Of a stretch of 64,000 nucleotides of DNA, positions 7,338 to 64,000 are shown in pieces. The translations under genes were made by a program, and so were the position numbers. The DNA comes from Eledone cirrhosa (lineage: Eukaryota), in the NCBI GenBank assembly GCA_964016885.1, contig CAXHJY010000001.1, positions 558,001-622,000 of the forward strand, written 5' to 3'. The first letter of the stretch is position 1. The number at the start of each line of letters is the position of its first letter. A model generated the notes under the pieces. That model worked only from the letters and a program-made list of their open reading frames with translations, made no database searches and was not told the DNA's origin.

Positions 7338-9987
7338 TTACCCGATAAACTTGTACGTATCCCATGGCGTGGGCCATCGGACTGTTCTTCCGGATTTGGT
7401 GTGTCGGGGTTGTGCAGAATTTGCCGTGTTTGTGTCGGGCAAAATTGTTGGTGAGTCTGCTGGAGAAACGGTGGGTACTGGTGGCAATTCCTGTTCTATG
7501 AACGCTTTTTTTAAACGATCAATGGAGACGGTATTTCGCTTCCCGTTCAAGTCGAAGACGAAATACTTAGAGCATTTCTGTATCACCTTGTAGGGCCCGG
7601 ACGGAATACGGCGGACGAAGTTGCGATGGAATACCGTCATTTCTAACGAAAACATGCGTCCATGTATCGATGTCTTTTGGTATGTGTGAAGTAACGTGCT
7701 GTTGTTTAGGGGCTGAAGGAGACAGATGCGACATTGATGACCATAAACGGTGCACGTATTTTGTAGGGTCTGGAAGTTCTTGTGGCGAAACAGGAGTGAT
7801 CATTTGTCCGGGTAGAGTGAGTACGGTGCCATACACCATTTCAGCCGGAGAATGTCCGGCTCCCTCTTTAACAGTGGAACGAATACCAAGAAGAATGAGT
7901 GGGAGGTATTCGAACCAGTTAGTGGAGTCTTCGTAAGCCTTGATAGATGCTTTTAGCTGGCGGTGTAAGCGTTCTACCATGCCGTTAGCGGCAGGGTGAT
8001 ACGCTGTTGTACGGATGTGTTTGCACCCGAGGAGACGAGTCAGCTCGGTAAATAGGTTCGAATCGAACTGACGTCCTCTATCCGTAGTGATGGTCACGGG
8101 TGTGCCGAAACGCGAAACCCAGTGAAACACTAACGTTTTGGCGACAGTTTCCGCAGTAATATCCGTCAGGGGAAAAGCTTCTGGCCAGCGAGAAAATCGG
8201 TCGACACAGGTGAGAAGATGAGTGTAGTTTTGAGAAGGGGGAAAAGGTCCAACTATGTCTATATGCACATGTTGGAACCGTGCATCAGGTGTTGCGAAAG
8301 AAGCGATCGGGGCTTTGATGTGCCGGTGAATTTTCGCCTTCTGGCACGCGATGCAGTTCCTAGCCCATTCGCGGGTGTCCTTGTTGATGTTGGGCCACAC
8401 AAAGCGGGCAACCATCAGTTTCTGCGTGGCATAGATGCCAGGATGTGCCAGAGAATGCTGTGTCGAGAAAACGTCGCGTCGATGTTTCCGGGGCACGTAT
8501 GGGCGCTCGCGGCCTGTGGAGATGTCACACCAAATATAACCCGAAGAAGAGGGCAGCGGGCATTCCTTCAATTTCAAGGATGATTTCCGGAGTTGCAGCA
8601 GTTCCTCGTCATTCTGTTGATCCGCTGCAATCTTCTGGAGGTCGATAGTGGCAGTGGTGTGGATTGCGTTAAGCTCCATGCGCGATAGGGCATAAGCTGC
8701 TGAGTTGGTGGCACCCTTAATGTACCGAATATCAGTAGTGTACTGAGAAATGAAGTCCAGATGTCGGACCTCCCTGGGTGAGTGTCGGTCAGGCTTGGCA
8801 TTGAACGCGTACACTAGTGGTTTGTGTCGGTGTATATAGAGAACACACGACCTTTTAGCATGTGTCGAAAATGCTTGACAGCAAGGTATGCTGCCAATAA
8901 TTCACGACTAAATGTGCTGTACTTAGTTTCGGCGGGTTTTAATCGCTTAGAGAAAAAAGATACAGGTCGCCAAATATCGCCAGAGAGTTGTTGAAGCACA
9001 CCTCCAACTCCGAAATCGGATGCATCAGTCAATAAACACATTGGGGCGTCAGGTTTGGGGTAACTCAGCATTGTAGCCTCGGACAACATTTTCTTCAACT
9101 CAGCGAAAGCGGTACCTTCTTTTTCGCTGACCTTGATGTTTGCGTTTTTGGTTGTACGCTGCCGCAGCAAATCTGTGAGTGGTTGGGCTGTCTCTGCACA
9201 GTGGGGTATAAATCTTCTGTAGAAGTTTACCAGGCCAAGAAATTCTCGCAGTTTGCGGAGAGATATAGGTTGTGGAAAATCAATGATGGATTTGACTTTC
9301 TCCTTAAGTGGGCGAATACCATCTTTGTCAATGATGTGTCCCAGAAAATGAAGGGACGCAACTCCGAACTCACATTTGCTGGGGTTGATAACAATTCCAT
9401 ATTCACGCAAACGTGTGAATAGGAGATCCAGGTGTTTCTCATGTGCTTCATCGGAGCTGCTGGCCACCAGTAAGTCGCCAATGTATGCGTATACAAAAGG
9501 TAGACCCCTGGTGACTGTATCATGAATCGCTGGAATGTTTGCGCTGCATTTCGCAAACCGAAAGGCATGCACAGAAATTCGAACATTCCAAAGGGTGTTG
9601 TGACGGCGGTCTTTGGAATATCTGCGGGCTCAACGGGTATCTGATTGTAAGCTCGCACAAGATCGATCTTCGAAAATATGCGAGCCCCGTGCAGCGAGCT
9701 AGAGAGAAGTCCTGTAGATGAGGCACTGGATAAGAGTTAGGAACGGTGCAGTTGTTTAGTGCACGGTAGTCGCCACAGATTCGCCAGTCGTTCGACGACT
9801 TCTTGGGTACACAGTGTATGGGTGAGGACCAGTTGCTGCTGGACGGACGTATGATGCCGAGATCCAGCATGTGCTGAAATTCTTGTTTGACGGACTTCAG
9901 CCGGTCTGGTGGTAGCCTTCTAGGTCGTGCAGCGACAGGTGGGCCGTGTGTTATTATGCGAACTGCGCTTGGATGTGCGCGAACCAC
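7338..9987 (-). pseudogene. pol: Gypsy pol (RT, RNase H, integrase) broken into several frames
   Basis: RT: [38 protein letters not shown]. RNase H: TDASDFGVGGVL, RELLA. Integrase: [28 protein letters not shown]-terminal SGPYKV. Confidence 0.93.
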
Positions 9988-11010: not shown

Positions 11011-13540
11011 TCATCATCATCTTCGTTTAACGTCCATTTTCCACGCTAGCATGGGTTAGACGGGAGTTGAGGCAAGGCTGGTCGGGTCTACTCTATTACT
11101 GCATAGTACCAAAGATCTCAGTCCAGAGACATTGTCTTAGAGAGATGTAAGTGTGTAAGGTCGGAATTTATCAGATCATCTCAGGTTTTTCTGGGTTTAC
11201 CTACTCCGTAACTACCATCAATTTTGATCGCCCTGCACTTTTTTATACAACTGTCGTCTTTCATGAGCATCACATGGCCATACCAATGTAGTCTTCTCTC
11301 AAGTAAACAGCATCTGATCCCTCTTATTCCTAATTTCTCACTTAGTTCATATATGCTTTGCCGTTCACGTATATTACTATTACACATCCAACGGAGCATG
11401 CATGCTTCATTCCTTTCCAGCCTACGCAGGTCCTCTGCAGGTAATGCCCATGTCTCACTGCCATGTAGCATTGCTGTTCGTATACATGCATCATACAATC
11501 TGCCTTTCATTTTTAGAGAGAAACCTTTTGTGGCCAACAGCAGTATAAGCACTCTGAACTTTTTCCATCCCGTTCTGACTCTGGCTACTGTACTTTCAGA
11601 ACACCCTCCACCACTGTTGATTTCGTCACCCAGGTAACGGAAAGTGTCTACTATTTCTATAGAACCATCAAGGCAATAGAAGGAGCTAGTATCCTTTGTA
11701 CACTTGCTACTTATTGCACCTGAGCATTGGCCACATATAAAGTCTACGTTCTTAGATAGTTTACCTGTGATCCCACTACATCTTTTATGTACCCATACTT
11801 TGCATTTGGGACATAAAATGGAATTTCTGCCTACTCCTTTCCTACACACTGAGCATGGCCATTTCCTTGAGGGCACCTGTGCCCTATTTTCCTTTCTACA
11901 AACTAGAACTTTAGTCTTAGACAAGTTAACTTTAAGGCCTTTTGATTCTAGGCCATGCTTCCATGTTTCGAATTTCTTCTCTAGTTCAGCCATTGATTCA
12001 ACTATGAGCATTAGATCATCTGCGTATAGGAGTTCCCATGGGCAGCGGGTCTTGAGCTCCTCTGTTATAGCCTGAAGGGCAATAATAAATAAGAGGGGGC
12101 TAAGGACAGAGCCTTGATGAACGCCAACTTTTACACTAAATTCTTCACAATATTCATTGTTAATTCTAACCTTACTGACTGTTTCATTATACATAGCTTG
12201 TATAGCTCTCACCAGCCATTCATCTACATCTAGTTTTCTAAGAGCCCACCAGATAATGGAGCGGGGGACTCTGTCAAAAGCTTTCTCCAAGTCTACAAAA
12301 GCAAAGTAGAGGGGTTTACTTTTAGCTAGGTACTTCTCTTGTAGTTGTCGTACAAGGAAAAGAGCGTCTGTGGTACTTTTACCTGACACAAACCCAAACT
12401 GCATTTCATCTAGATCAATTCGCTCTCTGATTAGTTGCGCTATTACTCTTTCTGTGACCTTCATGACCTGATCAAATAACTTAATGCCTCTATAGTTTCC
12501 CCTATCTAGAGCATCCCCTTTACCCTTGTAGCAGTTAATGATGATGCTGCTACGCCAGTCTTTCGGTATGACCCCATTCTGTATTACTTGGTTAACTATA
12601 CGGGTGACCATAGTGTGTCCCGCCATACCAGATGCCTTCAACATCTCAGCAACTACCTCCGAAGGGCCAGTTGCCTTGCCTGCCTTCATATCTTTGATTG
12701 CCTTACTTATTATACTACCTTTACCTTGCACCGCTGGTCCTTCTATTGGATCGATTTGGGGCAGACTATCTTTTTCCCACTTATTCTCCTCATTTAATAG
12801 TCTCTCGTAGTGACACTTCCAGGCTTATCCAGTATCAGTGAGCGCAAGTACACCATTATCATTACGGACACACTTCTCCCCGACAATATCACGGTTTTCC
12901 TTGACACATTGTCTAGCAATCCTGAACACCTCACGTTTTTGGTCCTCACGTTGCAGAACATGCTTGAACTTTCTATCCTCTGCTACCCTTTTTGCAAGGT
13001 ACACTTGTCTCCTAGCTTCTCTCCTGGCCACTTGATAGTGCTCTCTACTTCCCCCATCCCGCCATTCTTTCCAAGCCTGCTTTTTGGCCTTGATTGTCTC
13101 TTCCACCTCACTGTTCCACTATTCTGTCATTCACTCTATTTACGTCATTACCTTATCTACCCATTTTTCAGCTAACATAATTCCTATACTACCCTGTCCA
13201 TTGTCATTTCCCACCCAGAAAAGTTTATAGCATCGTTCTTTACCCACGATGAATTTGGCAGATCCCCCTCCCCACCTAGCCTCTTGAATACAACAAACAT
13301 CAACTTCTTTACGTTCAAGCATCTCTACAACCTCATTTGAGCGACCTTTCAATGTGCCTACGTTCATGGTACCAACTCTGAAGTTGGGAGGGTGGGATGG
13401 ATGGGTTGGAGGGGCAGGGAGGGGTGTGGGAGACGGGATTTTGTTGGTCATCTGTGTCTGAAATAAAGAGGGGTCCTTGTATTCTCGTCTTGCAGCAGGA
13501 GGTGAATTTGTCTTTGTCTGTGACATTGTCATTGAGTGCC
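11011..13540 (-). mobile_element. RTE-clade LINE with an internal deletion in the endonuclease region
   Basis: APE start (VGTMNVGTL, DVCCIQEARW) at 13140-13400, 516-aa RT ORF at 11181-12731, tail GGACGTTAAAC(GAT)n at about 11011-11060. Confidence 0.93.
11181..12731 (-). pseudogene. RTE reverse transcriptase remnant with a Cys/His finger insert
   Basis: NYRGIKL, QFGF, FVDLEKAFD, GVHQGSVLSP, YADD, CSVC..CPKCKVWVHKRC..CGQC, FRYLG. Confidence 0.9.
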
Positions 13541-19176: not shown

Positions 19177-19405
19177 TTAACCCTTTAGCATTTACATTAC
19201 TCCATATCTAATATTACATTTTTGTGGTAAAGGCTTTATCTTACATAATTATCTCACATAATATCAAATCTATGAGATTTTGATATTATATATTTTGAGA
19301 ACAATACCTTCACATAAGTATGAGCAGCCAGTTATGGCTGGTTTGAACAGAAAGATGTGAGAGAATTCTGGCCGGATATGGCCAGTTTAAATGCTAAAGG
19401 GTTAA
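19177..19405 (+). mobile_element. Unexpanded TTAA MITE (about 230 bp) inserted in a SINE
   Basis: TTAACCCTTTAGCATTTAC..AAATGCTAAAGGGTTAA. The interrupted repeat resembles 45128-45420. Confidence 0.9.
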
Positions 19406-19700
19406 CATAGCTCTCAGGGAGATTCAGCATGACACAGAGTGTGACAAGGCTGACCCTTTGAATTACAGGTACAACTCATTTTTGCCAGCTGAGTGAACTG
19501 GAATAATATGAAATAAAGTGTCTTGCTCAAGGACACAACACTCCGCTGGTAAACAAACTCATGACCTTACGATTGTGAGGCGAATACTCTAAACACAGAG
19601 CCACGCATCTTAGTTTATGATAAAATGTTTATAACTATCTTAAAACCTTCTATCCTAACTTTATGTAAGAACATTTGTTAAGTTATGTTTTAACTCTTTA

Positions 19701-20424
19701 GCATTTACATTACTCTATATATACTATTGTATTGTCACAGTAAAGGCTTTACCTCACATAATACCTCACATAACATTTACATTACTCTATATATACTATT
19801 GTATTTTCACAGTAAAGGCTTTACCTCACATAATATCTCACATAACATTTACATTACTCTATATATACTATTGTATTTTTGTGGTAAAGGCTTTACCTCA
19901 CATAATACCTCACATAACATTTACATTACTCTATATATACTATTGTATTTTCACAGTAAAGGCTTTACCTCACAATATCTCTCACATAACATTTACATTA
20001 CTCTATATATACTATTGTATTTTTGTGGTAAAGGCTTTACCTCACATAATACCTCACATAACATTTACATTACTCTATATATACTATTGTATTTTCACAG
20101 TAAAGGCTTTACTTCACATAATACCTCATATAACATTTACATTACTCTATATATACTATTGTATTTTCACAGTAAAGGCTTTACCTCACATAATACCTCA
20201 CATAACATTTACATTACTCTATATATACTATTGTATTTTTGTGGTAAAGGCTTTACCTCACATAATACCTCACATAACATTTACATTACTCTATATATAC
20301 TATTGTATTTTTGTGGTAAAGGCTTTACCTCACATAATACCTCACATAACATTTACATTACTCTATATATACTATTGTATTTTTGTGGTAAAGGCTTTAC
20401 CTCACATAATATCTCACATAACAT
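19701..20424 (+). repeat. 72-bp satellite, about 10 units
   Basis: ACATTTACATTACTCTATATATACTATTGTATTTTCACAGTAAAGGCTTTACCTCACATAATACCTCACATA; 24-aa periodicity in the ORF track. Confidence 0.95.
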
Positions 20425-20600
20425 CTCGTATACGAGAGACGTGTGTTGATTTACTTACTCAAAAGTGAGTTTTGATTAATTTTTTATACTGTAATATACG
20501 TTAACCCCATGCCTTGGTCGTCAAACTTTGAGTTTATTTATTTTCGCCCCTTTCTGGGGCGAATTTTCCAGTTAAAAATTATTACGGCAAACTAATAGAA

Positions 20601-22094
20601 ATGGATGGAATTTTCACATCTCATCCTAACGAGAAAGCCACGCCCCCTAAGAAAGGTGATGCAGAGAAGCTAGAAGCACAAGGCTCTAAGTCTCCCCTCC
20701 TGACTTCTGCAAAAGAAACATGGAACACGGAATTAAAAGAAAAATTTGTAAAAATGGGTGAAAACCCAGAAAGTCACATAAACGCAGACAAAAACAACAA
20801 CGACAATAACAGCAATAGTCACAACACCAACCAAGGAAAAAATAACGATAACACCAAACAAAGCGAACCCACTACTGGTGCCTCCTTTGCACAGGCGGTC
20901 CGGAAAACACAAACCTGCAAGCAACTGGACATTACAACTCTGTGAGAAAAGATGAAGGAAGCGAAACAGTATGTAACTTTCAAAGAAGGAGGAGACTTCA
21001 CAATCACCTCTCCACAAGAAATCAAAAGAGACACGACGCTAAGAACGATATCTTTCAGAACAATTTCCAACATAACAAGGAAACCAACTCAATTATCCCA
21101 AAAAGAGATTGAGCTGGTCCTAAAAAATGTGTGGAGTGATATATCGTTCATACAAAAAGGGCCACTCTATGGGAATATAACGGTCCTAATGAAGGATCAA
21201 TTGACGGCCAGGAAATACTCTGTGGCGCCAATTGTTTCCAAGCTACATACATTTTTCCCCACATATTTAGGGAAAAGAACGCAGAAGATAAGGGTCTCCG
21301 GAATCCGGCCAAATGCATGCATTTCCTGGGTACTAACAGGATTTTTAGAAGACGAGGACGGAATCCTTTCAGTAGGAGAAGTCACCACAGACGTTTTCGG
21401 CGGTTTGAGCGTGGAGGTTCTGGTCCAAATGAGACCAGAACGAATAGCTAGAATACCACAGAGGGTGTGCCTCGATGGAGAAACATTTATATATATTTCA
21501 GCCGCGGGTAGGAGGCCCATATGTTACTACTGTTCAAGCAGGGGTCATCTAAGGGCTGCTTGTCCTCAATTGACAAAAAAAAAGGCTCTTTTGCCTACAC
21601 CCCACACACCACCACCGCCACCACCACCACCACCACAACAACAACAAAAACAACACGGAAAAATAACACAAGACACGGCCCCACCCAAAACAACTCCCAA
21701 AACACACACAAATACAACAAAACCCCAAAATACACCACTACCCGACAGCACGGACGAGGACCCAGCTGAAACGGCACCTAGTGACGAAGAGGGGGAACCC
21801 TTCCAACCTGTAAAAAGGAAAAAAAGAAAGCACCACTCGAACATAAACGAAACAAACACACAACCACCAACAAAAACAAAACAAACAGAACAAACAAAAT
21901 CCGCCCCACCCCAAAACATAACACATACAACAAAACGTAAGCACACACAAGAACAACAAACAAACACAACACAAATAAAACAGTATACATACATTAACAC
22001 AAATAACAAAGAACTCGTAAAAACAATACACAAAGACCCTTTGGTGGAAACTGAAGGGCAATTCTTTGCAAGCGCGGGAACAAACCGCATTTAA
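20601..22094 (+). pseudogene. Tx1 ORF1 (gag-like, zinc knuckle), in-frame TGA at 20943-20945
   Basis: CYYCSSRGHLRAAC. Copy 2 has AGA at the stop position. Confidence 0.88.
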
Positions 22095-22342
22095 AAATGA
22101 TAAGACTCCCAATGGACACCTATGCAAAACTAAGAGAGAACTTTCCTGAGGACGTGGGGAAAACATGTACTCGACCCTATAACCGCGTCCTCTTGAAACG
22201 TTTCCCCACCCACACCTCACCAAACACCCCCACTCCACCACAGAACAACACCCCACCAAACAACCCCTCCAATACGCCCATGGATATTGTGCAACCTGCT
22301 CCTCAGGAGCCGAACAGGTAGGTCCTTCCTCTTTTAACCAAC

Positions 22343-25300
22343 ATGGCTGATATAAGAGTTGGGTGTCTGAATGTACGCGGCCTGGGACTGTCTTGGAAAC
22401 AAGGCAAACTTTTAAACGATCTCAGGTCGCATAGAATGGATGTAATGGCTATTTGCGAGTCCAGGATCAGCAGCGAGCACCAACTGGCGCCCCTCTTCGA
22501 CGACTTTGAGATCTTCGCATCTCTCTGTCAACCGGGGGGTGGGGGTGGAGTTGTCGTTCTGCTGCGAAAACACCTGGGCCTCGCCATACAGAAGGTGCAC
22601 CTGGACCCGGAGGGTCGACTGGTGGTTTTAGACGTCGGCAGTAGTGAAAGTGGAGCCCTTAGACTAATAGCTGTGTACGCCTCTTTTTGGGCAGCACGGC
22701 CGGAATACTTCCAACGTCTGGAAACTTTTCTGGGAACGTCCCGCTCCTTGCTTTTAGTGGGGGACTGGAATGGTATCCTGGATGCACGTTGGGACTATGT
22801 AGGGGCATGTGCCAATAGAGGGGGGTGTAAAAGCCTCAAAAGGTTAATCGGCCGATTTGACCTGGCCGATAGATATCGACTAGATTTTCCGACTGTACCA
22901 CTATGGACGTAGACCAATCACAGCGGAACATCTAGGTCGTACCTAGATAGGGTCCTAGTTAGAGAGAAGGATAGGGACACATTTAGCTGTCCAAAAATGT
23001 TCATGGTTGACTATTCGGATCACAAGTTAGTGACTTGCATAGCCAACCTTGATAGAACCCATAGACAGGGACCCGGTTACTGGAAGCTGAACTTGTCCTT
23101 ACCGCGAAGCAAAGCTTACAGTAAACGGATTAGCTCGTTAGTTAAGCAGAGTTTGACAGGGGCAATTGTCAACAACAGGTGGTGGAGCTCTCTTAAGAGA
23201 GCAATTAGAATAGAATCGATAGGTTTTAGTCAGGAATTAGCAAGGGATAGGAACAAGACGGAAAGGGAATTAGTAGATAGAGTAGAAGAGGCGATTAGGT
23301 GTGGCAATGTAGCCGGCGTGCTGGCATCAAGAATGGCCTTAGACCAGTTCTTTGAGGTGAAGCATGAAGGCTGCGTTGTCAGGAGTAAAATACGTGCTCT
23401 GGGTAATGAGGGAGCCAAAGCTGTGAGCTGGGCCCAAGTGACAGAGGCAAAAAGTGGGAACAAGTCCACGATTCGGTCTTTGAAGGACCAGGATGGGCGT
23501 GTGATCCTTGAACCTGGGCAGATGTGTGCGGCCTTTCAGCGGCACTTTGCACGACTGTTCGAGAGGGGCGGCGCGCCGGGTGAGACTATGGATTTCAATC
23601 CATACCTCGACGGTCTGCCGCGCCTCTCGGACGCGGAGGCGAAGTCCTGCGAAAGGCCGATTTCAGCTGCTGAGATAGGGGCGGCGCTGAGCCAATGCGG
23701 CAAACGCAAATCCCCGGGTCTCGATGGTCTACCATACGAGCTATATGTAGCGATGCCGGACTTGTTCTCCGATATCCTCGAAGTGGTCTACTGCAACTGG
23801 CAGCAGAACGGGAGAATTCCCAGTTCTGTGACCAAGGGCGTAGTTACACTGGTGAGGAAGGATGAGAACAAGGGGGATGACATAAGTAACTTCAGGCCCA
23901 TAACTCTGCTAAATACAGAGTTAAAGATTTTGGCCAAGGTGTTAGCGAAGAGGTTGGCGCTTGTCGTCGGAAACCTGGTGAGAGAAGCGCAGACATGCGC
24001 AATCCCTTCCAGGTCCATTCACGACAATCTCCACCTTATGCGATACATCATAGAGAGGGTAGGGAATGAACCCGGCTTTGGTGGGGCCCTGATCAACTTG
24101 GATCAATCTAAAGCTTTCGATAGGGTTGACCATCGTTACCTGGATGCAGTGCTCGCGGCGGCAGGCTTCGGACCCGTTTTCAGGGGTTGGATTGCTGCGA
24201 TGCACAGCAGCAACGTCTGTTCAAGGGTCAAGGTGAACGGCCACCTCTCGGAGCCGTTCCAAATCATGCAATCCATCCAACAGGGATGCCCTCTCTCCTC
24301 CCTACTGTATGTGCAGGCTCTTGAGCCACTACTGCGGAAGTTGGAGCGGTTGCAGGGCATCCCTTTGGAACCGGGATTGCAGAAAGCGGCGTCGGCCTAC
24401 GCCGATGACGTGACAGTAATGGTGTCGAAAACCTCGCAAATCGGTGAGATCGGCACCTTACTGGAGGAATATGAAAGGTTTACAGGAGCCAAGCTGAACC
24501 GGGACAAGTCCGTCGGTTTGCAACTCGGAACATGGAGAGGCAAACCGATGCCCTCCAACGACGTCGTCGGACGCTGGACGGAGGGCCCGGTGGAGCTGCT
24601 TGGGGTCTGGTTCGGACCAGACCTCCAGGTGGAGAAAAACTGGAACGAGTTAACGGCCAGGGTGTGGGCCCAGTGCAAACTATCCCTGAAAGGTCGAGCG
24701 GAGGTGGCGAATACTTATATAGCATCCGTCATCTACTACCGCTTGACCGTCGTGCCTTGCCCAGTGAAAAGACTCGCCAAAATGGAGTGCGCGCTGTTCC
24801 AATTTCTTTGGAACAAGCGGACCCCTTTGGTGAGGAGATCCATCTGCTGTCAACACCCTTCGAAAGGAGGGCTGGGGATGCCGTGGCTACAGATGCGTAA
24901 ACACGCATTAAGGCTATGGCACCTCCAGATATTCCTCACCGGTCAACCGGCGTGGGCCCCGTTTGTGAGGCGAGCCTTTCCCAGACTCGTCTCGCTCACC
25001 GAGCTGCAATCCTGGGTCAAGCAAAGACCGAGAAAAGTGGGCGACTGGCACATTGAATGTGCCCATGCGCTCACGGCCCTCTGGAAAGCGGACCCGGCAA
25101 TCAGTGGAGACTCCACCTCGACATTCTATAGAGGGTTGGTACGCAGCAGGTGCGACGATGCTCTCGGAGAAGCTCTAGGCATGGAGGAAGATGAACTGGC
25201 CAGTCTGTTTGGTAGGACGTTTGGCCCTGGACCGATGGACAACTTCCAAAAGTCCCTGGCTTGGCAGTGCTACCGAGGGGCTCTACCCGTTCAAGACAAG

Positions 25301-25762
25301 CTCCACAGGCATGGGAGCCTGCGTAGAGATCCTTTGAATAAGATCTGTCCGAGATGCGTGCATGATGACGAAACCGTTGCGCACGCATTCGTACACTGCC
25401 CAGGCATTGCTGACCTGTGGGGCTATGTGGAACGACTACTGTCGAGGGTGGGACCAATCCGGTTGACCACCGAGTCCATTGTTACGATCAAACCGCCTCC
25501 CCCTTTCAAAAACGAAGGAGAGGCGGTTTTTCTCTGTGTGATAGCCATAGCTAAAGAAGTTGTATGGTGGACGAGGCTGAAAGGGCTGAGGTCAGACACC
25601 TTTCTCTCCGGCCAACAACTGGTCCCCTTTTTCAAATACCATTTTAAAAGAAGGATCAGAATGGAGAGAGAGGTGCTCTACCCCAGCAAGTTTTATGAAA
25701 GGTGGGTGAAAGTAGGGAGAATGGCCAGAGTGAATGGGTCTTCTCTCTATATCAGCCTGTAG
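22343..25762 (+). pseudogene. Tx1 ORF2 (APE endonuclease + RT + C-terminal Cys finger), one in-frame TAG at 22910-22912
   Basis: CLNVRGL, GDWNG, YLDRVL, SDHKL; KSPGLDG, FRPITLLN, DQSKAFD, QGCPLS, YADD; CPRC..HAFVHC. Copy 2 has TGG at the stop. Confidence 0.93.
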
Positions 25763-25999
25763 GTGAAAGAAGAGGAAAAAGAGGAGACGAGGGAAGCACC
25801 TACTCTTTGTGCTCCTGAGGAGAGGGGTTGCACATTTTTTCCGGGGTATGTGCGACCCATGTTAATGCCCCCTCCCTATTGAGGACTTCGTTTGTTGTTG
25901 TTATTTCATTGTTATATTTTTGTACTCGTTAATTATATGTAAACTTCCCCCCTTGTATCTGTCCCTACCTTTTGTGCCCTAGTGGCAAATAAAGAAACC

Positions 26000-26136
26000 A
26001 CTCTATATATACTATTGTATGGTCACAGTAAAGGCTTTACCTCACATAATATCTCACATAACATTTACATTACTCTATATATACTATTGTATTTTCACAG
26101 TAAAGGCTTTACCTCACATAATATCTCACATAACAT
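26000..26136 (+). repeat. 72-bp satellite, about 2 units, between the two LINEs
   Basis: Same unit as 19701-20424. Confidence 0.95.
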
Positions 26137-26344
26137 CTCGTATACGAGAGACGTGTGTTGACGTGTGTGAACAAGCTCGGCTACCGAGTTGGATTTACTT
26201 ACTCAAAAGTGAGTTTTGATTAATTTTTTATACTGTAATATACGTTAACCCCATGCCTTGGTCGTCAAACTTTGAGTTTATTTATTTTCGCCCCTTTTTG
26301 GGGCGAATTTTCCAGTTAAAAATTATTACGGCAAACTAATAGAA

Positions 26345-27849
26345 ATGGATGGAATTTTCACATCTCATCCTAACGAGAAAGCCACGCCCCCTAAGAAAGG
26401 TGATACAGAGAAGCTAGAAGCACAAGACTCTAAGTCTTCCCTCCTCACTTCTGCAAAAGAAACATGGAACACGGAATTAAAAGAAAAAATTGTAAAAATG
26501 GGTGAAAACCCAGAAAGTCACATAAACGCAGACAAAAACAACAACGACAATAACAGCAATAGTCACAACACCAACCAAGGAAAAAATAACGATAACACCA
26601 AACAAAGCGAACCCACTACTGGTGCCTCCTTTGCACAGGCGGTCCGGAAAACATAGACCTGCAAGCAACTGGACATTACAACTCTGAGAGAAAAGATGAA
26701 GGAAGCAAAACAGTATGTAACTTTCAAAGAAGGAGGAGACTTCACAATCACCTCCCCACAAGAAATCAAAAGAGACACGACACTAAGAACGATATCTTTC
26801 AGAACAATTTCCAGCATAACAAGGAAACCAGCTCAATTATCCCAAAAAGAAAATTGAGCTGGTCCTAAAAAATGTGTGGAGTGATATATCGTTCATACAA
26901 AAAGGGCCACTCTATGGGAATATAACGGTCCTAATGAAGGATCAATTGATGGCCAGGAAATACTCTGTGGCGCCAATTGTTTCCAAGCTACATACATTTT
27001 TCCCCACATACTTAGGGAAAAGAACGCAGAAAATAAGAGTCTCCGGAATCCGGCCAAATGCATGCATTTCCTGGGTACTAACAGGATTTTTAGGAGATGA
27101 GGACGGAATCCTCTCAGTAGGAGAAGTCACCACAGACGTTTTCGGCGGTTTGAGCGTGGAGGTTCTGGTCCAAATAAGACCAGAACGAATAGCTAGAATA
27201 CCACAGAGGGTGTCCCTTGATGGAGAAACATTTATATACATTTCAGCCGAGGGTAGGAGGCCCATATGTTACTACTGTTCAAGCAGGGGTCATCTAAGGG
27301 CTGCCTGTCCTCAATTGACAAAAAAAAAGGCTCTTTTGCTTACACCCCACACACCACCACCGCCACCACCACCACCACCTCCACCACCACCACAACAACA
27401 ACAAAAACAACACGGAAAAATAACACAAGACACGGCCCCACCCAAAACAACTCCCAAAACACACAAACTCAACAAAACCCCAAAATACACCACTACCCGA
27501 CAGCACGGACGAGGACCCAGCTGAAACGGCACCTAGTGACGAAGAGGGGGGACCCTTCCAACCTGTAAAAAGGAAAAAAAGAAAGCACCACTCGAACATA
27601 AACGAAACAAACACACAACCACCAACAAAAACAAAACAAACAGAACAAACAAAATCCGCCCCACCCCAAAACATAACACATACAACAAAACGTAAGCACA
27701 CACAAGAACAACAAACAAACACAACACAAATAAAACAGTATATATACATTAACACAAATAACAAAGAACTAGTAAAAACAATACACAAAGACCCTTTGGT
27801 GGAAACTGAAGGGCAATTCTTTGCAAGCGCGGGAACAAACCGCATTTAA
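26345..27849 (+). pseudogene. Tx1 ORF1, copy 2 (stop at 26654 and frameshifts)
   Basis: ORF fragments 26345-26656 and 26874-27524, the latter with the CCHC knuckle. Confidence 0.85.
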
Positions 27850-28097
27850 AAATGATAAGACTCCCAATGGACACCTATGCAAAACTAAGAGAGAACTTTC
27901 CTGAGGACGTGGGGAAAACATGTACTCGACCCTATAACCGCGCCCTCTTGAAACGTTTCCCCACCCACACCTCACCAAACACCCCCACTCCACCACAGAA
28001 CAACACCCCACCAAACAACCCCTCCAATACGCCCATGGATATTGTGCAACCTTCTCCTCAGGAGCCGAACAGGTAGGTCCTTCCTCTTTTAACCAAC

Positions 28098-31000
28098 ATG
28101 GCTGCTATAAGAGTTGGGTGTCTGAATGTACGCGGCCTGGGACTGTCTTGGAAACAGGGCAAACTTTTAAACGATCTCAGGTCACATAGAATGGATGTAA
28201 TGGCTATTTGCGAGTCCAGGATCAGCAGCGAGCACCAACTGGCGCCCCTCTTCGATGACTTTGAGATTTTCGCATTTCTCTGTCAACCGGGGGGTGGGGG
28301 TGGAGTTGTCGTTCTGCTGTGAAAACACCTGGGCCTCGCCATACAGAAGGTGCACCTGGACCCGTAGGGTCGACTGGTGGTTTTAGACGTCGGCAGTAGT
28401 GAAAGTGGAGCCCTTAGACTAATTGCTGTGTACGCCCCTTTTTGGGCAGCGCGGCCAGAATACTTCCAACGTCTGGAAACTTTTCTGGGAACGTCCCGCT
28501 CCTTGCTTTTAGTGGGGGACTGGAATGGTATCCTGGATGCACGTTGGGACTATGTAGGGGCATGTGCCAATAGAGGAGGGTGTAAAAGCCTCAAAAGGTT
28601 AATCGGCCGATTTGACCTGGCCGATAGATATCGACTAGATTTTCCGACTGTACCACTATGGACGTGGACCAATCGAAGCGGAACATCTAGGTCGTACCTA
28701 GATAGGGTCCTAGTTAGAGAGAAGGATAGGGACACATTTAGCTGTCCAAAAATGTTCCTGGTTGACTATTCGGATCACAAGCTAGTGACCTACATAGCCA
28801 ACCTTGATAGAACCCATAGACAGGGACCCGGTTACTGGAAGCTGAACTGGTCCTTACCGACAAGCAAAGCTTACAGTAAACGGATTAGCACGTTAGTTAA
28901 GCAGAGTTTGACAGGGGCAATTGTCAACAACAGGTGGTGGAGCTCTCTTAAGAGAGCAATTAGAATAGAATCGATAGGTTTTAGTCAGGAATTAGCAAGG
29001 GATAGGAACAAGACGGAAAGGGAATTAGTAGATAGAGTAGAAGAGGCGATTAGGTGTGGCAATGTAGCCGGCGTGCTGGCATCAAGAATGGCCTTAGACC
29101 AGTTCTTTGAGGTGAAGCATGAAGGCTGCGTTGTCAGAAGTAAAATACGTGCTCTGGGTAATGAGGGAGCCAAAGCTGTGAGCTGGGCCCGAGTGACAGA
29201 GGCAAAAAGTGGGAACAAGTCCACGATTCGGTCTTTGAAGGACCAGGATGGGCGTGTGATCCTTGAACCTGGGCAGATGTGTGCGGCCTTTCAGCGGCAC
29301 TTTGCACAACTGTTCGGGATGGAGGGCACGCCGGGTGTGACTATGGATTTCAATCCATACCTCGACGGTCTGCCGCGCCTCTCGGACGGGGAGGCGAAGT
29401 CCTGCGAAAGGCCGATTTTAGCTGCTGAGATAGGGGCGGCGCTGAGCCAATGCGGCAAACGCAAATCCCCGGGTGTCGATGGTTTACCATACGAGCTATA
29501 TGTAGCAATGTCGGACTTGTTCTCCGATATCCTCGAAGCGGTCTACTGCAACTGGCAGCAGAACGGGAGAATTCCCAGTTCTGTGACCAAGGGCGTAGTT
29601 ACGCTGGTGAGGAAGGACGAGAACAAGGGGGATGACATAAGTAACTTCAGGCCCATAACTCTGCTAAATGCAGAGTTAAAAATTTTGGCCAAGGTGTTAG
29701 CGAAGAGGTTGGCGCTTGTCGTCGGAAACCTGGTGGGAGAAGCGCAGACATGCGCAATCCCGTCCAGGTCCATTCACGACAATCTCCACCTTATGCGATA
29801 CATCATAGAGAGGGTAGGGAATGAACCCGGCTTTGGTGGGGCCCTGATCAACTTGGATCAATCTAAAGCTTTCGATAGGGTTGACCATCGTTACCTGGAT
29901 GCAGTGCTCGCGGCGGCAGGCTTCGGACCCGTTTTCAGGGGTTGGATTGCTGCGATGCACAGCAGCAACGTCTGCTCAAGGGTCAAGGTGAACGGCCACC
30001 TCTCGGAGCCATTCCAAATCATGCGATCCATCCGACAGGGATGCCCTCTCTCCTCCCTTCTGTATGTGCTGGCTCTTGAGCCACTACTGCGGAAGTTGGA
30101 GCGGTTGCAGGGCATCCCTTTGGAACCGGGATTGCAGAAAGCGGCGTCGGCCTACGCCGATGACGTGACAGTAATGGTGTCGAAAACCTCGCAAATTGGC
30201 ACCTTACTGGAGGAATATGAAAGGTTTACAGGAGCCAAGCTGAACCGGGACAAGTCCGTCGGTTTGCAACTCGGAACATGGAGAGGCAAACCGATGCCCT
30301 CCAACGACGTCGTCGGACGCTGGACAGAGGGGCCGGTGAAGCTACTTGGGGTCTCGTTCGGACCAGACCTCCAGGTGGAGAAAAACTGGAACGAGGTAAC
30401 GGCCAGGGTGTTTGCACTCACCCAGAAGTGGGCCCAGTGCAAACTATCCCTGAAAGGTCGAGCGGAGGTGGCGAATACTTATATAGCATCCGTCATCTAC
30501 TACCGCTTGACCGTCGTGCCTTGCCCAGTGAAAAGACTCGCCAAAATGGAGTGCGCGCTGTTCCAATTTCTTTGGAACAAGCGGACCCCTTTGGTGAGGA
30601 GATCCATCTGCTGTCAACACCCTTCGAAAGGAGGGCTGGGGATGCCATGGCTACAGATGCGTAAACACGCATTAAGGCTACGGCACCTCCAGGTATTCCT
30701 CACCGGTCAACCGGTGTGGGCCCCGTTTGTGAGGCGAGCCTTTCCCAGACTCGTCTCGCTCACCGAGCTGCAATCATGGGTCAAGCAAAGACCGAGAAAA
30801 GTGGGCGACTGGCACATTGAATGTGCCCAGGCGCTCACGGCCCTCTGGAAAGCGGACCAGTGGAGACTCCACCTCGACATTCTATAGAGGGTTGGTACGC
30901 AGCAGGTGCGACGATGCTCTCGGAGAAGCTCTAGGCATGGAGGAAGATGAACTGGCCAGTCTGTTCGGTAGGACGTTTGGCCCTGGACCGATGGACAACA

Positions 31001-31518
31001 TCCAAAAGTCCCTGGCTTGGCAGTGCTACCGAGGGGCTCTACCCGTTCGAGACAAGCTCCACAGGCATGGGAGCTTGGGTAGGGATCCTTTGAATAAGAT
31101 CTGTCCGAGATGCGTGCATGACGACGAAACCGTTGCGCACGCATTCGTACACTGCCCAGGCATTGCTGACCTGTGGGGCTATGTGGAACGACTACTGTCG
31201 AAGGTGGGACCAATCCGGTTGACCACCGAGTCCATTGTCACGATCAAACCGCCTCCCCCTTTCAAAAACGAAGGAGAGGCGGTTTTTCTCTGTGTGATAG
31301 CCATAGCTAAAGAAGTTGTATGGTGGACGAGGCTGAAAGGGCTGAGGTCAGACACCTTTCTCTCCGGCCAACAACTGGTCCCCTTTTTCAAATACCATTT
31401 TAAAAGAAGGATCAGAATGGAGAGAGAGGTGCTCTACACCAGCAAGTTTTATGAAAGGTGGGTGAAAGTAGGGAGAATGGCCAGAGTGAATGGGTCTTCT
31501 CTCTATATCAGCCTGTAG
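28098..31518 (+). pseudogene. Tx1 ORF2, copy 2 (two early stops, 8-bp frameshift deletion near 30857)
   Basis: Fragments 28098-28322, 28377-30887 and 30817-31518 are collinear with copy 1. Confidence 0.92.
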
Positions 31519-31652
31519 GTGAAAGAAGAGGAAAAAGAGGAGACGAGGGAATCACCTACTCTTTGTGCTCCTGAGGAGAAGGGTTGCACATTTTTTCCGG
31601 GGTGTGTGCGACCCATGTTAATGCCCCCTCCCTATTGAGGACTTTGTTTGTT

Positions 31653-32406
31653 GTAAAGGCTTTACCTCACATAATATCTCACATAACATTTACATTACTC
31701 TATATATACTATTGTATTGTCACAGTAAAGGCTTTACCTCACATAATACCTCACATAACATTTACATTACTCTATATATACTATTGTATTTTCATGGTAA
31801 AGGCTTTACCTCACATAATATCTCACATAACATTTACATTACTCTATATATACTATTGTATTTTTGTGGTAAAGGCTTTACCTCACATAATATCTCACAT
31901 AACATTTACATTACTCTATATATACTATTGTATTGTCACAGTAAAGGCTTTACCTCACATAATATCTCACATAACATTTACATTACTCTATATATACTAT
32001 TATATTTTTGTGGTAAAGGCTTTACCTCACATAATAACTCACATAACATTTATATTACTCTATATATACTATTGTATTGTCACAGTAAAGGCTTTACCTC
32101 ACATAATATCTCACATAACATTTACATTACTCTATATATACTATTGTATTGTCACAGTAAAGGCTTTACCTCACATAATATCTCACATAACATTTACATT
32201 ACTCTATATATACTATTGTATTTTCACAGTAAAGGCTTTACCTCACATAATACCTCACATAACATTTACATTACTCTATATATACTATTGTATTGTCACA
32301 GTAAAGGCTTTACCTCACATAATATCTCACATAACATTTATATTACTCTATATATACTATTGTATTTTCACAGTAAAGGCTTTACCTCATAATTATCTCA
32401 CATAAT
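31653..32406 (+). repeat. 72-bp satellite, about 10 units
   Basis: Same unit as 19701-20424. Confidence 0.95.
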
Positions 32407-32622
32407 GGTTTTTTATATAGGCACAAGGCCAGCAATTTTGGGGTAGGGCGAACGTCGATTAAATCGACCCTAGTGAGTAACTGGTACTTTATTTTATCAA
32501 CCCCATAATGATGAAAGGCAAAGTTAACCTCGGCGGGATTGAACTCAAATCATAAAGGGCCGTAACTCTATGCGGCAAAGCATGGCGTCTGACCCTCTAC
32601 CGATACTGCCAATCCACCGCCC
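32407..32622 (-). mobile_element. SINE-B with an ~20-bp target-site duplication
   Basis: TCATAATTATCTCACATAAT on both sides (32387-32406 and 32623-32642). Confidence 0.9.
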
Positions 32623-33016
32623 TCATAATTATCTCACATAATATCGAATCTATGAGATTTTGATGTTATTTATCTTGAGAACAATACCTTAATATAAGTA
32701 TGAGTGTCCAGTTACAGCCAGTTTGAATAGAAAGAGTTGAGAAAATTCTGGCCGAATACAACCGATTTAAATGCTAAAGGGTTAATTCTAAATTTGGCAC
32801 AATTTTTTATGATGAATTTTTTACGAGTAAGAGGCCTCATAACATAACTAGCACAGGGCTTCATGTGCCTTAAATCTTGCACTGGTCCAAGCCCATGTTT
32901 GCCAATCAGTTTTTGACTAAACTTTACCCAAACCTCCCTCCTCACCACCATTTCCACCATCACCACCACCACCAAATACCATTGCTATTTGTTTTTTGTT
33001 TTAACTTTCTTACCAG

Positions 33017-33217
33017 GTTTTTCTGCAGCACAAAATAAATTCTCAATAATAGTGTTGGTATCAAATGACAAAAAACACAGAATATGTGAGAAGATTTCCA
33101 ATCTAGAGAAGACAAAAGTTATTGATGTGCAATGTTCTAGTCCTGTTAAGGGCAACAAAATCACAATAATTCTGCTGTCAGGACCTAGCCTTAGCATGTG
33201 TGAAGTGGAGGTCTTTT
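33017..33217 (+). CDS. Host gene exon: C-terminal half of the F-type-lectin-like domain
   Basis: CAG|..|GTAAGT, 201 bp, phase 1-1. ..RICEKI..DVQCSSPVKGNKITII..LSMCEVEVF. An in-frame alternative acceptor exists at 33029. Confidence 0.85.
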
Positions 33218-33339
33218 GTAAGTATATAGATACCTTTATACCTTTAACATAAATCAGGATAGAACCAGTTTAAAACTAGTTAGACCATTACTGAACAGAG
33301 TATTCGATACATGGGTTAGTAAGGGTAAAAGGTAAAGAG

Positions 33340-34887: not shown

Positions 34888-35696
34888 TTAACCCTTTAGC
34901 ATTTAAACTGGCCATATCCGGCCAGAATTCTCTAACCTCTGTTCAAATCAGCTGCAACTGGCCACTCATACTGATGTTAAGGTTTTCTTCTCAAAATAAA
35001 TAATATTAAAATCTTGTAGATTCAATATTATGTGAGATAATTATGTGAGGTAAAGCCTTTACCATGAAAATACAATAGTAAATACAGAGTAAGATAAATG
35101 TTATGTGAGATAATTATGTGAGGTAAAGCCTTTACCATGAAAATACAATAGTAAATACAGAGTAAGGTAAATGTTATGTGAGATAATTATGTGAGGTAAA
35201 GCCTTTACCATGAAAATACAATAGTAAATACAGAGTAATGTAAATGTTATGTGAGATAATTATGTGAGGTAAAGCCTTTACCATGAAAATACAATAGTAA
35301 ATACAGAGTAATGTAAATGTTATGTGAGATAATTATGTGAGGTAAAGCCTTTACCATGAAAATACAATAGTAAATACAGAGTAATGTAAATGCTATGTGA
35401 GATAATTATGTGAGGTAAAGCCTTTACCATGAAAATACAATAGTAAATACAGAGTAATGTAAATGCTATGTGAGATAATTATGTGAGGTAAAGCCTTTAC
35501 CATGAAAATACAATAGTAAATACAGGGTAATGTAAATGTTATGTGAGATAATTATGTGAGGTAAAGCCTTTACCATGAAAATACAATAGTAAATACAGGG
35601 TAATGTAAATGTTATGTGAGATAATTATGTGAGGTAAAGCCTTTACCATGAAAATACAATAGTAAATACAGGGTAATGTAAATGCTAAAGGGTTAA
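34888..35696 (-). mobile_element. TTAA MITE with an independent 73-bp x ~9 subterminal expansion
   Basis: TTAACCCTTTAGCATTTAAA..AATGCTAAAGGGTTAA; array at 35028-35685. Confidence 0.92.
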
Positions 35697-35724
35697 AATA
35701 AACAGCATTGTCAAAGTGCAGATT

Positions 35725-36324: not shown

Positions 36325-36980
36325 GTGAGTGGTGGTGGTGGAGTGTAGGTGGTTGTCATGGTTATAGTGGGAGTGGAGTGTTGGTGGCTGTCGTGGTTAT
36401 AGTGGGAGTGGAGTGGAGGTGGCTGTCATGGTTATAGTGGGAGTGGAGTGTAGGTGGTGCTGGAGTGGAGGTGTTGGTGGTGCTGGAGTGTAGGTAGTTG
36501 TGATGGTGGTGGAGTGTAGGTGGCTGTTGTGGTTTTAGTGGGAGTGGGGTGTAGGAGGTGGTGGTGACGGTGGTGGTGGAGTGTAGGTAGTTGTGGTGGT
36601 GAGGATGGTGTTGGTGGAGTGTAGGTGGCTGTCGTGGTTATAGTGGGAGGGGAGTGTAGGTGGTGGTGGTGGTGGAGTGTAGGTAGTTGTGCTGGTGGTG
36701 GTGAGGATGGTGTTGGTGGAGTGTAGGTGGCTGTCGTGGTTTTAGTGGGAGTGGAGTGTAGGTGGTGGTGGAGTGGAGGTGTTGGTGGTGGTGAGGATGA
36801 TGTTGGTGTTGGTGGTGGTGGAGTGTAGGTGGTGATGGTGGTGGTGGAGTGGAGGTAGTTGTGGTGGTGAGGAGGATGCTGGTTTTGTTGTTGGTGTGGT
36901 GGTGGTGGTGGTGCTGCTGCTGGTGGTGATAGTGGTAGTGGTGGTGGTATTGCATATTGTAGTAGGTATTGTTGATGTTG
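36325..36980. repeat. G/T-rich low-complexity repeat
   Basis: (GGT)n and GGAGTGTAGGT variants. Confidence 0.9.
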
Positions 36981-37038
36981 TTTAGCCCCAGGTAAGCCAA
37001 CATCCAACAGACCTGCCAAGAGTGGTCTCAGATGGTGC

Positions 37039-37250
37039 TTGGAACATAACTTAACAAAGGTTGTTAGTATTGTAAGAACAAGGTCCACATCTGGCAGTTT
37101 GGTATCAAAAGGGTTAAGATGGTATTTGGAACATAACTTAACAAAGGTTGTTAGTATTGTTAGAACAAGGTCCACATCTGGCAGTTTGGTATCGAAACGG
37201 TTAAGATGGTATTTGGAACATAACTTAACAAAGGTCCTTAGTATTGTAAG
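37039..37250. repeat. 87-bp tandem repeat, about 2.5 copies
   Basis: TTGGAACATAACTTAACAAAGG..AAAGGGTTAAGATGGTAT. Confidence 0.85.
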
Positions 37251-37362
37251 GGTTGATTAATCCTATTAATCCTTTGTATTCTTACTCAGTTGAACCTCAT
37301 TTTTTTTACAAATGTTTAGTGAGATAAAAGAGCAGAGGTTTTCTCATGATCTTTCATTGTAG

Positions 37363-39389: not shown

Positions 39390-39610
39390 TTAACCTTTAG
39401 CATTTAAACCGGCCATATCCGGCCAGAATTCTCTCACCTTTTTCTGTTCAAACCAGCCGTAACTGGCTGCTCATACTTATGTTAAGGTATTGTTCTCAAA
39501 ATAAATAATATCAAAATCTTGTTGATTTGATATTATGTGAGATTATTATGTGAGGTAAAGACTTTACAGAGAAAATACATTACAGAGTAATGTAAATGCT
39601 AAAGAGTTAA
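39390..39610 (-). mobile_element. Unexpanded TTAA MITE
   Basis: TTAACCTTTAGCATTTAAA..AATGCTAAAGAGTTAA. Confidence 0.9.
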
Positions 39611-44429: not shown

Positions 44430-45121
44430 TAAGATAATGTAGTCTTAGATACACTATGCCTGATAGCCACTAATACTAACTACTGTACTGTATATTAGAT
44501 AATGTAGTCCTAGATACACTATGCCTGATAGCCACTAATACTAACTACTGTACTGTACATTAGATAATGTAGTCCTAGATACACTATGTCTGATAGCCTC
44601 TAATACTGATTACTGTACTGTACATCAGGTAATGTAGTCCTAGATACACTATGTCAGATAGCCACTAATACTAACTACTACACTGTACATTAGATAATGT
44701 AGTCCTAGATACACTGTCTGATAGCCACTAATACTAACTACTGTACTGTACATTAGATAATGTAGTCCTAGATACACTATGTCTGATAGCCACTAATACT
44801 AACTACTGTACTGTACATTAGATAATGTAGTCCTAGATACACTATGTCTGATAGCCACTAATACTAACTACTGTACTGTACATTAGATAATGTAGTCCTA
44901 GATACACTATGCCTGATAGCCACTAATACTAACTACTGTACTGTACATTAGATAATGTAGTCCTAGATACACTATGCCTGATAGCCTCTAATACTAACTA
45001 CTATATTGTACATTAGGTAATGTAGTCCTAGATATACTATGCCTGATAGCCACTAATACTAACTACTGTACTGTACATTAGATAATGTAGTCCTAGATAC
45101 ACTATGTCTGATAGTCACTAG
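44430..45121. repeat. Minisatellite, 65-bp unit, about 10.5 copies
   Basis: TAGATAATGTAGTCCTAGATACACTATGTCTGATAGCCACTAATACTAACTACTGTACTGTACAT. Confidence 0.95.
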
Positions 45122-63670: not shown

Positions 63671-64000
63671 TTAAACTTCCTATTACCATATTTCTAATGA
63701 AAGACACTGTATATGTCATTAACCCTTTCATTACCATATTTCTAATGAAAGACACTGTCTATGTCATTAACCCTTTCATTACCATATTTCTAATGAAGGA
63801 CACTGTATATGTCATTAACCCTTTCATTACCATATTTCTAATGAAGGACACTGTATATGTCATTAACCCCTTCATTACCATATTTCTAATGAAAGACACT
63901 CTATGTCATTAACCCTTTCATTACCATATTTCTAATGAAAGACACTGTCTATGTCATTAACCCTTTCATTACCATATTTCTAATGAAGGACACTGTATAT
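63671..64000. repeat. 48-bp tandem repeat running off the window
   Basis: TTAACCCTTTCATTACCATATTTCTAATGAAAGACACTGTATATGTCA. Confidence 0.95.

Follow-up and report, generated by a model that had tools for sequence, protein, structure and literature searches.

A young LINE targeted to the satellite of a piggyBac-type MITE in Eledone cirrhosa, with a probable target-derived 5' head

Why should two long interspersed nuclear elements (LINEs) begin at the same base of a tandem repeat that itself lies inside a DNA transposon? This question is raised by a 64-kb stretch of the Eledone cirrhosa genome (contig CAXHJY010000001.1, positions 558,001 to 622,000; hereafter the window), which holds a miniature inverted-repeat transposable element (MITE) of 13,096 bp bounded by TTAA at 19690-19693 and 32782-32785, with MITE terminal repeats at both ends. 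An internal array of 72-bp units (10.0 copies at 19702-20424, 1.9 at 26000-26136 and 10.5 at 31653-32405) is interrupted by two + strand LINEs, copies A and B, whose first bases (20425 and 26137) each stand directly after CTCACATAACAT. An earlier note, made from the sequence alone, had described a TTAA MITE with an internal 72-bp array and two same-orientation LINEs with an apurinic/apyrimidinic endonuclease (APE) and a reverse transcriptase (RT) starting at one base of the unit. Both descriptions were confirmed, as the TTAA ends, the terminal repeats and short MITE copies at 19177 and 39390 were found and the LINE domains were recovered by Pfam (Exo_endo_phos, RVT_1 and zf-RVT above cut-off in the window copies). 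The array is real, but it does not account for the expansion to 13.1 kb that had been ascribed to it: the two LINEs make up about 11.1 kb and the array is a minor share of the length. Targeting of DNA transposons by Tx1-type LINEs has been described in frogs and crocodilians. We asked whether this LINE, hereafter the satellite LINE, is targeted to the array and how its copies arose.

Target specificity, copy age and the host MITE

Ends of the satellite LINE were counted across the 3.0-Gb genome by an exact 5' 21-mer and an exact 3' 24-mer. The 5' sequence had 302 matches, with CACATAACAT directly upstream in 292, and the 3' sequence had 347, with YCACTCTAT directly downstream in 277. Among the 70 exceptions at the 3' end, 24 were examined; 22 belonged to a sister family described below and two were satellite LINEs in a variant target (L135 and L062). 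For 102 full-length copies with both flanks (68 selected solely by LINE sequence, 34 taken from the list of on-target 3' ends), the exact 12-nt 5' flank was present in 98, and ACTCTAT with at most one mismatch followed the 3' junction in all 102. These fixed flanks are not due to chance, because exact array junctions number 32,602, or about 1 in 10^5 positions; roughly 1% of these junctions are occupied by a LINE. The target is TTACATT/ACTCTAT (the slash marks the junction) in the 72-bp unit, and it is used by about 300 copies. No satellite LINE was found outside the MITE target among the copies examined, a few disrupted flanks resembling later rearrangements, and tandem copies are spaced by 65+72n bp (exactly so in 13 of 23 spacers). 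The element has the target-sequence specificity expected of the Tx1 clade. We are confident that the observation is real and that site-specific targeting, as the earlier note had proposed, is well supported; a survey of 5' and 3' flanks returned nearly uniform flanks at a fixed site, and not the unrelated flanks that would have indicated otherwise.

A caveat raised at the outset was that unequal crossover within the satellite would also give two copies with identical 5' junctions. Copies A and B differ by 2.06%, with B ranking 84th of 89 among the relatives of A and A ranking 56th of 90 among those of B. One insertion followed by tandem duplication is ruled out for this pair because neither is the other's closest relative, and MITEs with other outer flanks hold further copies. 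Of 16 same-cluster or paralogous pairs that were tried, six could be ranked, six could not and four were comparisons with the window copies; the partner was the nearest relative in none of the six, in either direction. Seven 5'-truncated copies have the same 3' junction, but the left junction is particular to each and follows 1-16 bp (in one case about 41 bp) of ACTCT..., as is usual for target-primed insertion. When 40 on-target 3' ends were sampled by position, 34 proved to extend to the 5' end and six to be truncated, so that about 85% are full length. Three copies on three chromosomes (L088, L195 and L204) have zero mismatches over more than 4.8 kb, with one gap, and occupy arrays of different variant type. 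Both open reading frames (ORFs) are kept in 22 of the 102 full-length copies, with intact APE catalytic motifs. The spread of the LINE is very recent.

The window has a counterpart on C27 that is 98-99.5% identical, and its outer flanks are common to loci on C23, C27 and C16. The counterpart, at C27:15.40-15.43 Mb (L097-L099), corresponds to window positions 11.5-40.8 kb, and the related flanks on these three sequences recur with differing LINE numbers. It could stem from the other haplotype or from segmental duplication, C16 being just 811 kb long; segmental duplication accounts for a minority of copies only. As regards chromosomal distribution, the copies listed on C1 and C2 lie only in the distal ~30 Mb, while MITE ends extend further inward, and multi-unit arrays may be distal on the largest chromosomes. 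Stacks of five to six LINE copies per array region occur at C1:4.22-4.26 Mb and C10:40.72-40.75 Mb.

A search of the genome for piggyBac transposases gave 125 matches, and 15 of 20 fetched loci represented one 2.57-kb family (within L256-L274) that carries DDE_Tnp_1_7. The left end of this family matches the intact MITE end at 21 of 22 nt, and the terminal 16 bp are common to both; since the end is shared with a transposase-coding family of the same genome, the MITE is a non-autonomous piggyBac element with TTAA duplication, as is Tx1D of Xenopus. Identity among the youngest copies of the 2.57-kb family reaches 99.7-99.9%, and they hold an open frame of 561 aa. A source of transposase is thus present, but the subterminal repeats of this family differ from those of the MITE. 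A second piggyBac family with related ends was also seen (L265, L268, L270 and L272). There are at least 9,249 exact MITE left ends in the genome, and 22 of 30 sampled MITEs (the first 30 on C1, hence not a random sample) have a single unit.

The MITE arms beside the LINEs could be compared at the 56 of 102 loci where the right arm was in reach. The arms differ by a median of 16.6% (minimum 5.4%) and the LINE 3' 2-kb segments by 1.3%, which indicates that the LINE invaded old MITEs. Arm and LINE distances were uncorrelated (Mantel r=0.11, p=0.17), and LINE pairs listed at 0.15-0.3% distance had arms 10-23% apart. Outer flanks and unit counts vary between LINE-bearing MITEs, and unit counts and variants vary even around identical LINEs. 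Composites with different outer flanks do exist, but their arms are diverged and no near-identical composite of arms, array and LINE was found at different TTAA sites among the 56 loci. The suggestion that the composite could move has gained no support, and its transposition as the main route of spread is ruled out by the divergence of the arms relative to the LINEs. The MITE is probably a passive landing pad.

The 5' junction and its possible origins

Uniform 5' junctions had been taken to mean a fixed target site. This holds for the site, but an element-borne head, overlooked at that time, is the likely source of the uniform 5' junction. The array unit preceding each full-length LINE (the junction unit) is a chimera. 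Variants common to both neighbouring units were counted as array-wide, and 810 LINE-free unit triples supplied a baseline. At positions 1-36 the junction unit shared such variants in 21 of 30 cases (baseline 374/503, p=0.67); at positions 41-65 it shared none of 12 (baseline 126/218, p=5e-5). The modal sequence of positions 41-65 was seen in 85 of the 102 junction units, as compared with 43/88, 46/100 and 39/74 neighbouring units. At L165 and L166 all of the other units (17 and 29, respectively) are 58-60 bp long and the junction unit is of the long type; at the copy A locus the upstream units read ATAATACCTC and the junction unit ATAATATCTC. The head appears to start at about position 37-41, because local variants extend to position 36 (L102 and L190), and it is absent from truncated copies. 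Of the 23 youngest copies, 18 were informative (and five not) when positions 1-36 were compared with the first downstream unit, and the two differ in 16 of these; a target duplication of 65 bp or of 36-50 bp is rejected on this result. Judged from these comparisons, the junction unit is best described as an upstream unit whose end has been replaced and which has lost 7 bp, and full-length insertion is consequently predicted to need two units. In keeping with this prediction, and although single-unit MITEs are common, a single-unit origin is possible for just one of the 102 full-length copies (L171); a truncated copy, L172, sits in a single-unit MITE. Full-length copies thus probably carry a target-derived head on their own RNA that is used for precise 5' joining, and the functional 5' end of the LINE likely lies 25-29 nt upstream of the junction that was first described.

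We consider it probable that a young two-ORF APE-RT LINE inserts at a fixed satellite site by an endonuclease nick and priming, and that its 5' end is joined by pairing of the head with the upstream unit. The APE domain would nick the bottom strand at, or a few bases to the right of, ACATT/ACTCT and prime reverse transcription of an RNA that would end right after AATAAA and may extend a few bases into the target. This RNA would start at about unit position 37-41, either from a satellite promoter or as a processed read-through transcript; a TATATATA box, the candidate promoter, is found at unit positions 5-12, about 30-35 nt upstream of the putative start. The start would then lie upstream of CTCGTATACG, so that the RNA includes satellite bases. 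On complete reverse transcription the head complementary DNA would pair with the upstream unit, overwrite its last 25-29 nt and lose TTACATT. Such pairing would prime the second strand, giving a uniform junction and some 85% full-length copies, and would require at least two units. After an early stop there would be no head, and single-unit MITEs could serve as well; the end would be joined with a variable duplication, 1-16 bp long and in one case about 41 bp. The head and the first 35 nt of the 5' untranslated region (UTR) are predicted to pair, the 223-nt region having z=-4.6.

Two features of the 5' UTR are kept in the satellite LINE and its relatives. One is a hairpin with a C-rich/G-rich stem, a T-rich loop and compensatory changes, found in all three families (at 26270-26312 in the window and in the 5' UTRs of L205, L206 and L213); the other, likewise in all three, is the motif GTRAGT at a distance of about 65-75 nt from the 5' end. 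They may represent an RNA element or a splice donor.

Several observations weigh against the head-pairing mechanism or limit its reach. The exact position of the nick and the specificity of the APE are predictions. The 12 head events are partly non-independent, as L165 and L166 share one array. Three of the 102 junction units (L087, L092 and L105) are of the short type like the downstream unit, which needs pairing in the last 12 nt. At L117 the head joins an internal LINE position; we read this as an internal deletion, but it also fits a fixed top-strand cut, and L171, L130 and L204 are equally compatible with a long duplication. An Rfam search found no ribozyme family, its three matches falling far below threshold. 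Full descriptors of hepatitis delta virus (HDV)-like ribozymes gave 0 hits in all three sequences and loose partial ones gave seven unconvincing hits, although a divergent ribozyme could escape such searches; no hammerhead core was found by scan. No ribozyme that would make a head in the manner of R2 elements was thus detected. Contigs from three runs (two of one study covering all 30 bins, the third yielding 15 weak pieces) cannot show starts or strand and hence cannot place the transcript start.

The uniform junction could instead reflect a site-specific element without a head, in which a bottom-strand cut at ACATT/ACTCT and a top-strand cut at CATAACAT/TTACATT delete 7 bp and positions 41-65 are uniform as only perfect units are cut. 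This would yield the same junction and the 65+72n tandem spacing (exact in 13 of the 23 spacers), and would explain L117, a shortened copy with the same 5' junction. However, the seven truncated copies bypass the top-strand site, two of them having no upstream unit and others having variants there, and long-type junction units occur in the all-short arrays of L165 and L166; we judge this explanation unlikely. A widely staggered cut giving a 36-65 bp target-site duplication would let one unit suffice, and it would account for L171, L190, L130 and L204, where variants as far as positions 28-36 are shared privately by the two sides, and for tandem copies just 65 bp apart. It is difficult to reconcile with the differences between the two sides in 16 of the 18 informative youngest copies, or with the prevalence of single-unit MITEs (22 of the 30 sampled) when such a MITE could be the origin of at most one full-length copy of the 102 (L171); we regard it as a distinctly unlikely account.

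The remaining alternatives deny either independent insertion or true specificity. Spread of the composite as a piggyBac passenger, or by unequal crossover or duplication, from one or a few insertions would be in keeping with the young piggyBac family (up to 99.9% identity, 561-aa frame) that has the same terminal 16 bp, with the full length of most LINE copies and with the 98-99.5% copy of the window on C27 and its flanks shared with C23, C27 and C16. Arms that are never less than 5.4% apart among 56 loci (Mantel p=0.17), unit counts and variants that differ around identical LINEs, truncated copies with junctions of their own and the distance between copies A and B make this route extremely improbable. 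Alternatively, the LINE may be loosely targeted to AT-rich or TATC-like DNA, with the pattern arising from selection against copies elsewhere or from a preference for the chromatin of distal arrays. In its favour are the use of (TATC)n by the sister family, the similarity of the target core TCTATAT to that repeat, and the distal clustering of the listed copies on the largest chromosomes. Nearly all copies, however, are precise to the base at both ends and share one orientation, and none of those examined was found outside the MITE target, which leaves this reading with very little credence.

Head pairing therefore continues to be the explanation that we prefer. The uniform junction and the high proportion of full-length copies bear on how LINEs synthesize the second strand and avoid 5' truncation. 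More tentatively, and with considerable doubt, an active APE LINE may have independently evolved R2-style precise integration without a ribozyme, being transcribed from a TATA-like box in the satellite and carrying 25-29 nt of target on its RNA, after a recent switch from (TATC)n (the endonucleases being 73% identical). On that reading the head would make full-length integration efficient only where at least two units stand in tandem, and the LINE would depend on the expanded satellite of a dead piggyBac MITE and be restricted to it.

Anatomy of the window

The composite opens with the TTAA duplication and left terminal repeat of the piggyBac-type MITE (19690..19701, +; one C>T change in the repeat), followed by ten units of the array that is the LINE target (19702..20424, +). 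The last 25 nt of this segment (20400..20424, +; unit positions 41-65) form the head of copy A, which is presumed to be element-borne and may start at about 20396. Copy A itself (20425..25999, +) lacks 32 bp near its 5' end, in the 5' UTR, and ends in AATAAAGAAACC at 25999 without poly(A), followed by ACTCTATAT. Its ORF1 (from about 20601, +) encodes a putative CCHC knuckle and has a stop and a frameshift, and its ORF2 (22343-25762, +) encodes APE, RT and zinc-finger regions with a single in-frame stop at 22910-22912. The satellite spacer between the copies (26000..26136, +; 137 bp, or 65+72) begins at the fixed 3' junction ACTCTATAT, and its final 25 nt (26112-26136, +) are the head of copy B. 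Copy B (26137..31652, +) has a complete 5' UTR, frameshifts in ORF1 and ORF2, and a 3' deletion of about 100 bp that joins it to unit position 29; both copies thus carry stops or frameshifts. There follow 10.5 array units (31653..32406, +), a 215-bp dispersed repeat in the last unit (32407..32621, -) with a 21-bp target duplication (32386-32406 and 32622-32642), and the MITE right arm with its terminal repeat and TTAA end (32622..32785, +). From its resemblance to tRNA-headed short interspersed nuclear elements (SINEs), we take the 215-bp insert to be SINE-like and on the minus strand. Outside the composite are single-unit empty MITEs at 19177..19405 (+) and 39390..39610 (-), the short copies being 88% identical, and a MITE with a nine-unit 73-bp array and no LINE (34888..35697, -).

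An exon-like frame ending SLSMCEVEVF, without a Pfam match, is present at 32917-33252 and an exon-like Pro/Thr/His-rich repeat at 36432-37256 (minus strand); the MITE may lie within an intron, the gene concerned being a duplicated one. Another RT-coding LINE is represented by several decayed copies, at 11184-12824 (-), 49619-50413, 58050-58874 and 4193-5464. They have 25-26% identity to ORF2 of the satellite LINE and are presumably RTE-like, judging by their motifs. A pol-like frame of the long terminal repeat type lies at 7570-9629 (-). Further minisatellites are found at 1662-2337 (61 bp), 3221-3759 (49 bp), 44432-45120 (65 bp), 51326-53046 (28 bp) and 63682-64000 (48-bp unit). A match to the 48-bp unit is found at the end of the second piggyBac family, so tandem expansion within TTAA elements may be general in this genome.

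Relationships and comparison with known systems

An intact satellite LINE encodes an ORF1 of 573 aa and an ORF2 of 1145 aa with PF03372, PF00078 and PF13966. A CCHC zinc knuckle in ORF1 is a feature of the Tx1 clade; here zf-CCHC scored E=0.0045-0.007, below the curated cut-off, with the motif CYYCSSRGHLRAAC visible. Two ORFs, and an ORF2 with N-terminal APE, RT and a C-terminal zinc-binding region, agree with the architecture of the Tx1 clade (L1 group). R2 elements have one ORF, and the single ORF with restriction-like endonuclease of the R2 clade is absent, the satellite LINE having APE and two ORFs. In phmmer searches ORF2 gave 280-360 bits to ten vertebrate and coral proteins, several with the automatic names TX1 or YTX2, as compared with 182 bits to human L1 ORF2p and 60-82 bits to R2. 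The closest named homologue of ORF2 is from Argonauta (68%), and additional LINE relatives are 42-44% identical. A quick RT tree of 67 rows, built without L1 proper or Xenopus Tx1L and rooted on one long-branch RT from the window, placed the satellite LINE in a clade of its own (24 rows; Shimodaira-Hasegawa-like approximate likelihood ratio test support 100) at an open basal fork beside the named TX1 clade. This supported clade comprised the satellite LINE, its sister family, two octopod-level relatives and 18 other proteins. PDB searches with three of the proteins hit (P0236, P0107 and P0108), intended to identify an L1-proper reference, gave 240-262 bits each and marked none as L1 proper. 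By sequence similarity, then, the satellite LINE falls in the L1 group, nearer to Tx1-labelled proteins than to human L1 or R2. The earlier note had called it a Tx1-clade LINE: given its architecture and scores, and its place at an open fork of the quick tree, the element is Tx1-like, not a proven member of the clade and not an R2.

The fixed site of the LINE was recognized in that note, but its nearest relative found here, on (TATC)n, was missed. This sister family has ORF2 DNA about 81% identical to that of the satellite LINE and (TATC)n-like sequence downstream at all 22 loci examined (7 and 20 loci in two samples, 5 being common to both). The two families are 72-73% identical in the endonuclease and 77-87% in the RT, and the hairpin-loop region of the endonuclease has only two differences. 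A shared ancestor that targeted (TATC)n, with a switch from the microsatellite to the MITE satellite, is likely because (TATC)n and ACATT/ACTCTAT have a TCTAT core in common; the direction of the switch is presumed. The sister copies (L205-L224, on C1-C3) have two 5' UTR types, lie in phase in (TATC)n and are often stacked with other related families, and those listed are in chromosome interiors. The pair offers a natural test of changes in target specificity among APE endonucleases, to which the grafting of loops between distant enzymes gave only a partial answer (PMC1950540).

Comparable systems differ in instructive ways. The Tx1L site is an internal tandem repeat and its fixed target duplication is about 23 bp, unlike the satellite LINE, in which full copies have a 7-bp net loss and a head and truncated copies have duplications of 1-16 (41) bp. 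Xenopus Tx1L is described as an APE-type LINE at a specific sequence of the non-autonomous piggyBac element Tx1D (PMC4494074, PMC1950540). The host of the satellite LINE is likewise a non-autonomous piggyBac element with TTAA, but it belongs to an invertebrate and has an unrelated target sequence (the systems being compared by description and not by sequence), and a separate origin is likely because the nearest relative found targets (TATC)n. One of these reports also describes crocodilian Tx1-Mar, Tx1-9_AMi and SINEU-3/SINEU-2B, which prefer DNA transposons (Mariner-N4_AMi and Harbinger) and form tandem insertions; hitchhiking was tested there using truncated copies, and all of these are old copies that display a preference, of 13-90% in the SINEU families (PMC4494074). 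In contrast, the satellite LINE is near-absolute in its preference at the single-base level, young and autonomous, and has a head on nearly every full copy. In SINEU-2B the 5' end is extended by 42 nt that resemble the Mariner target of this element (PMC4494074), a partial precedent for the head. The same report gives (TC)n and (TTC)n as the targets of the fish Tx1 families Kibi and Koshi (PMC4494074). The sister family resembles them in using a microsatellite, although the repeat unit differs and the fish elements form a clade separate from the octopod group in the quick RT tree.

Among molluscs, DTC84 of Donax is a MITE that serves as a cassette for a variable internal array (PMC3879986); unlike the Eledone MITE, with its TTAA and piggyBac ends, it has an AA duplication, and its abstract mentions no targeting LINE. 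A paper on Octopus vulgaris repeats reports 13 recently active L1-Tx1 families, and a word search of its main text found neither 'target' nor 'satellite'. Our literature search, with Repbase, supplements and subscription papers outside its scope, returned no cephalopod LINE targeting a piggyBac MITE and no head-bearing autonomous Tx1 or APE element.

The closest parallel at the 5' end is with R2 elements of springtail and silkmoth that have 13-36 nt of upstream 28S sequence on their RNA, whose uniform 5' junctions are attributed to annealing of this sequence to the target; the springtail R2 has a uniform 7-bp deletion at this junction (PMC3774820). The satellite LINE shares with these the uniform junction and the target sequence, here probably element-borne, and with the springtail R2 the 7-bp loss. 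R2 has a restriction-like endonuclease, a ribosomal DNA target and an HDV-like ribozyme; the satellite LINE, by contrast, has an APE and two ORFs, inserts into a dispersed transposon satellite and yielded no ribozyme in the searches. The satellite LINE thus works like Tx1L in its choice of target and like certain R2s at its 5' end, and appears to be a strict and very young invertebrate case with intact copies, of separate origin from the frog and crocodilian systems.

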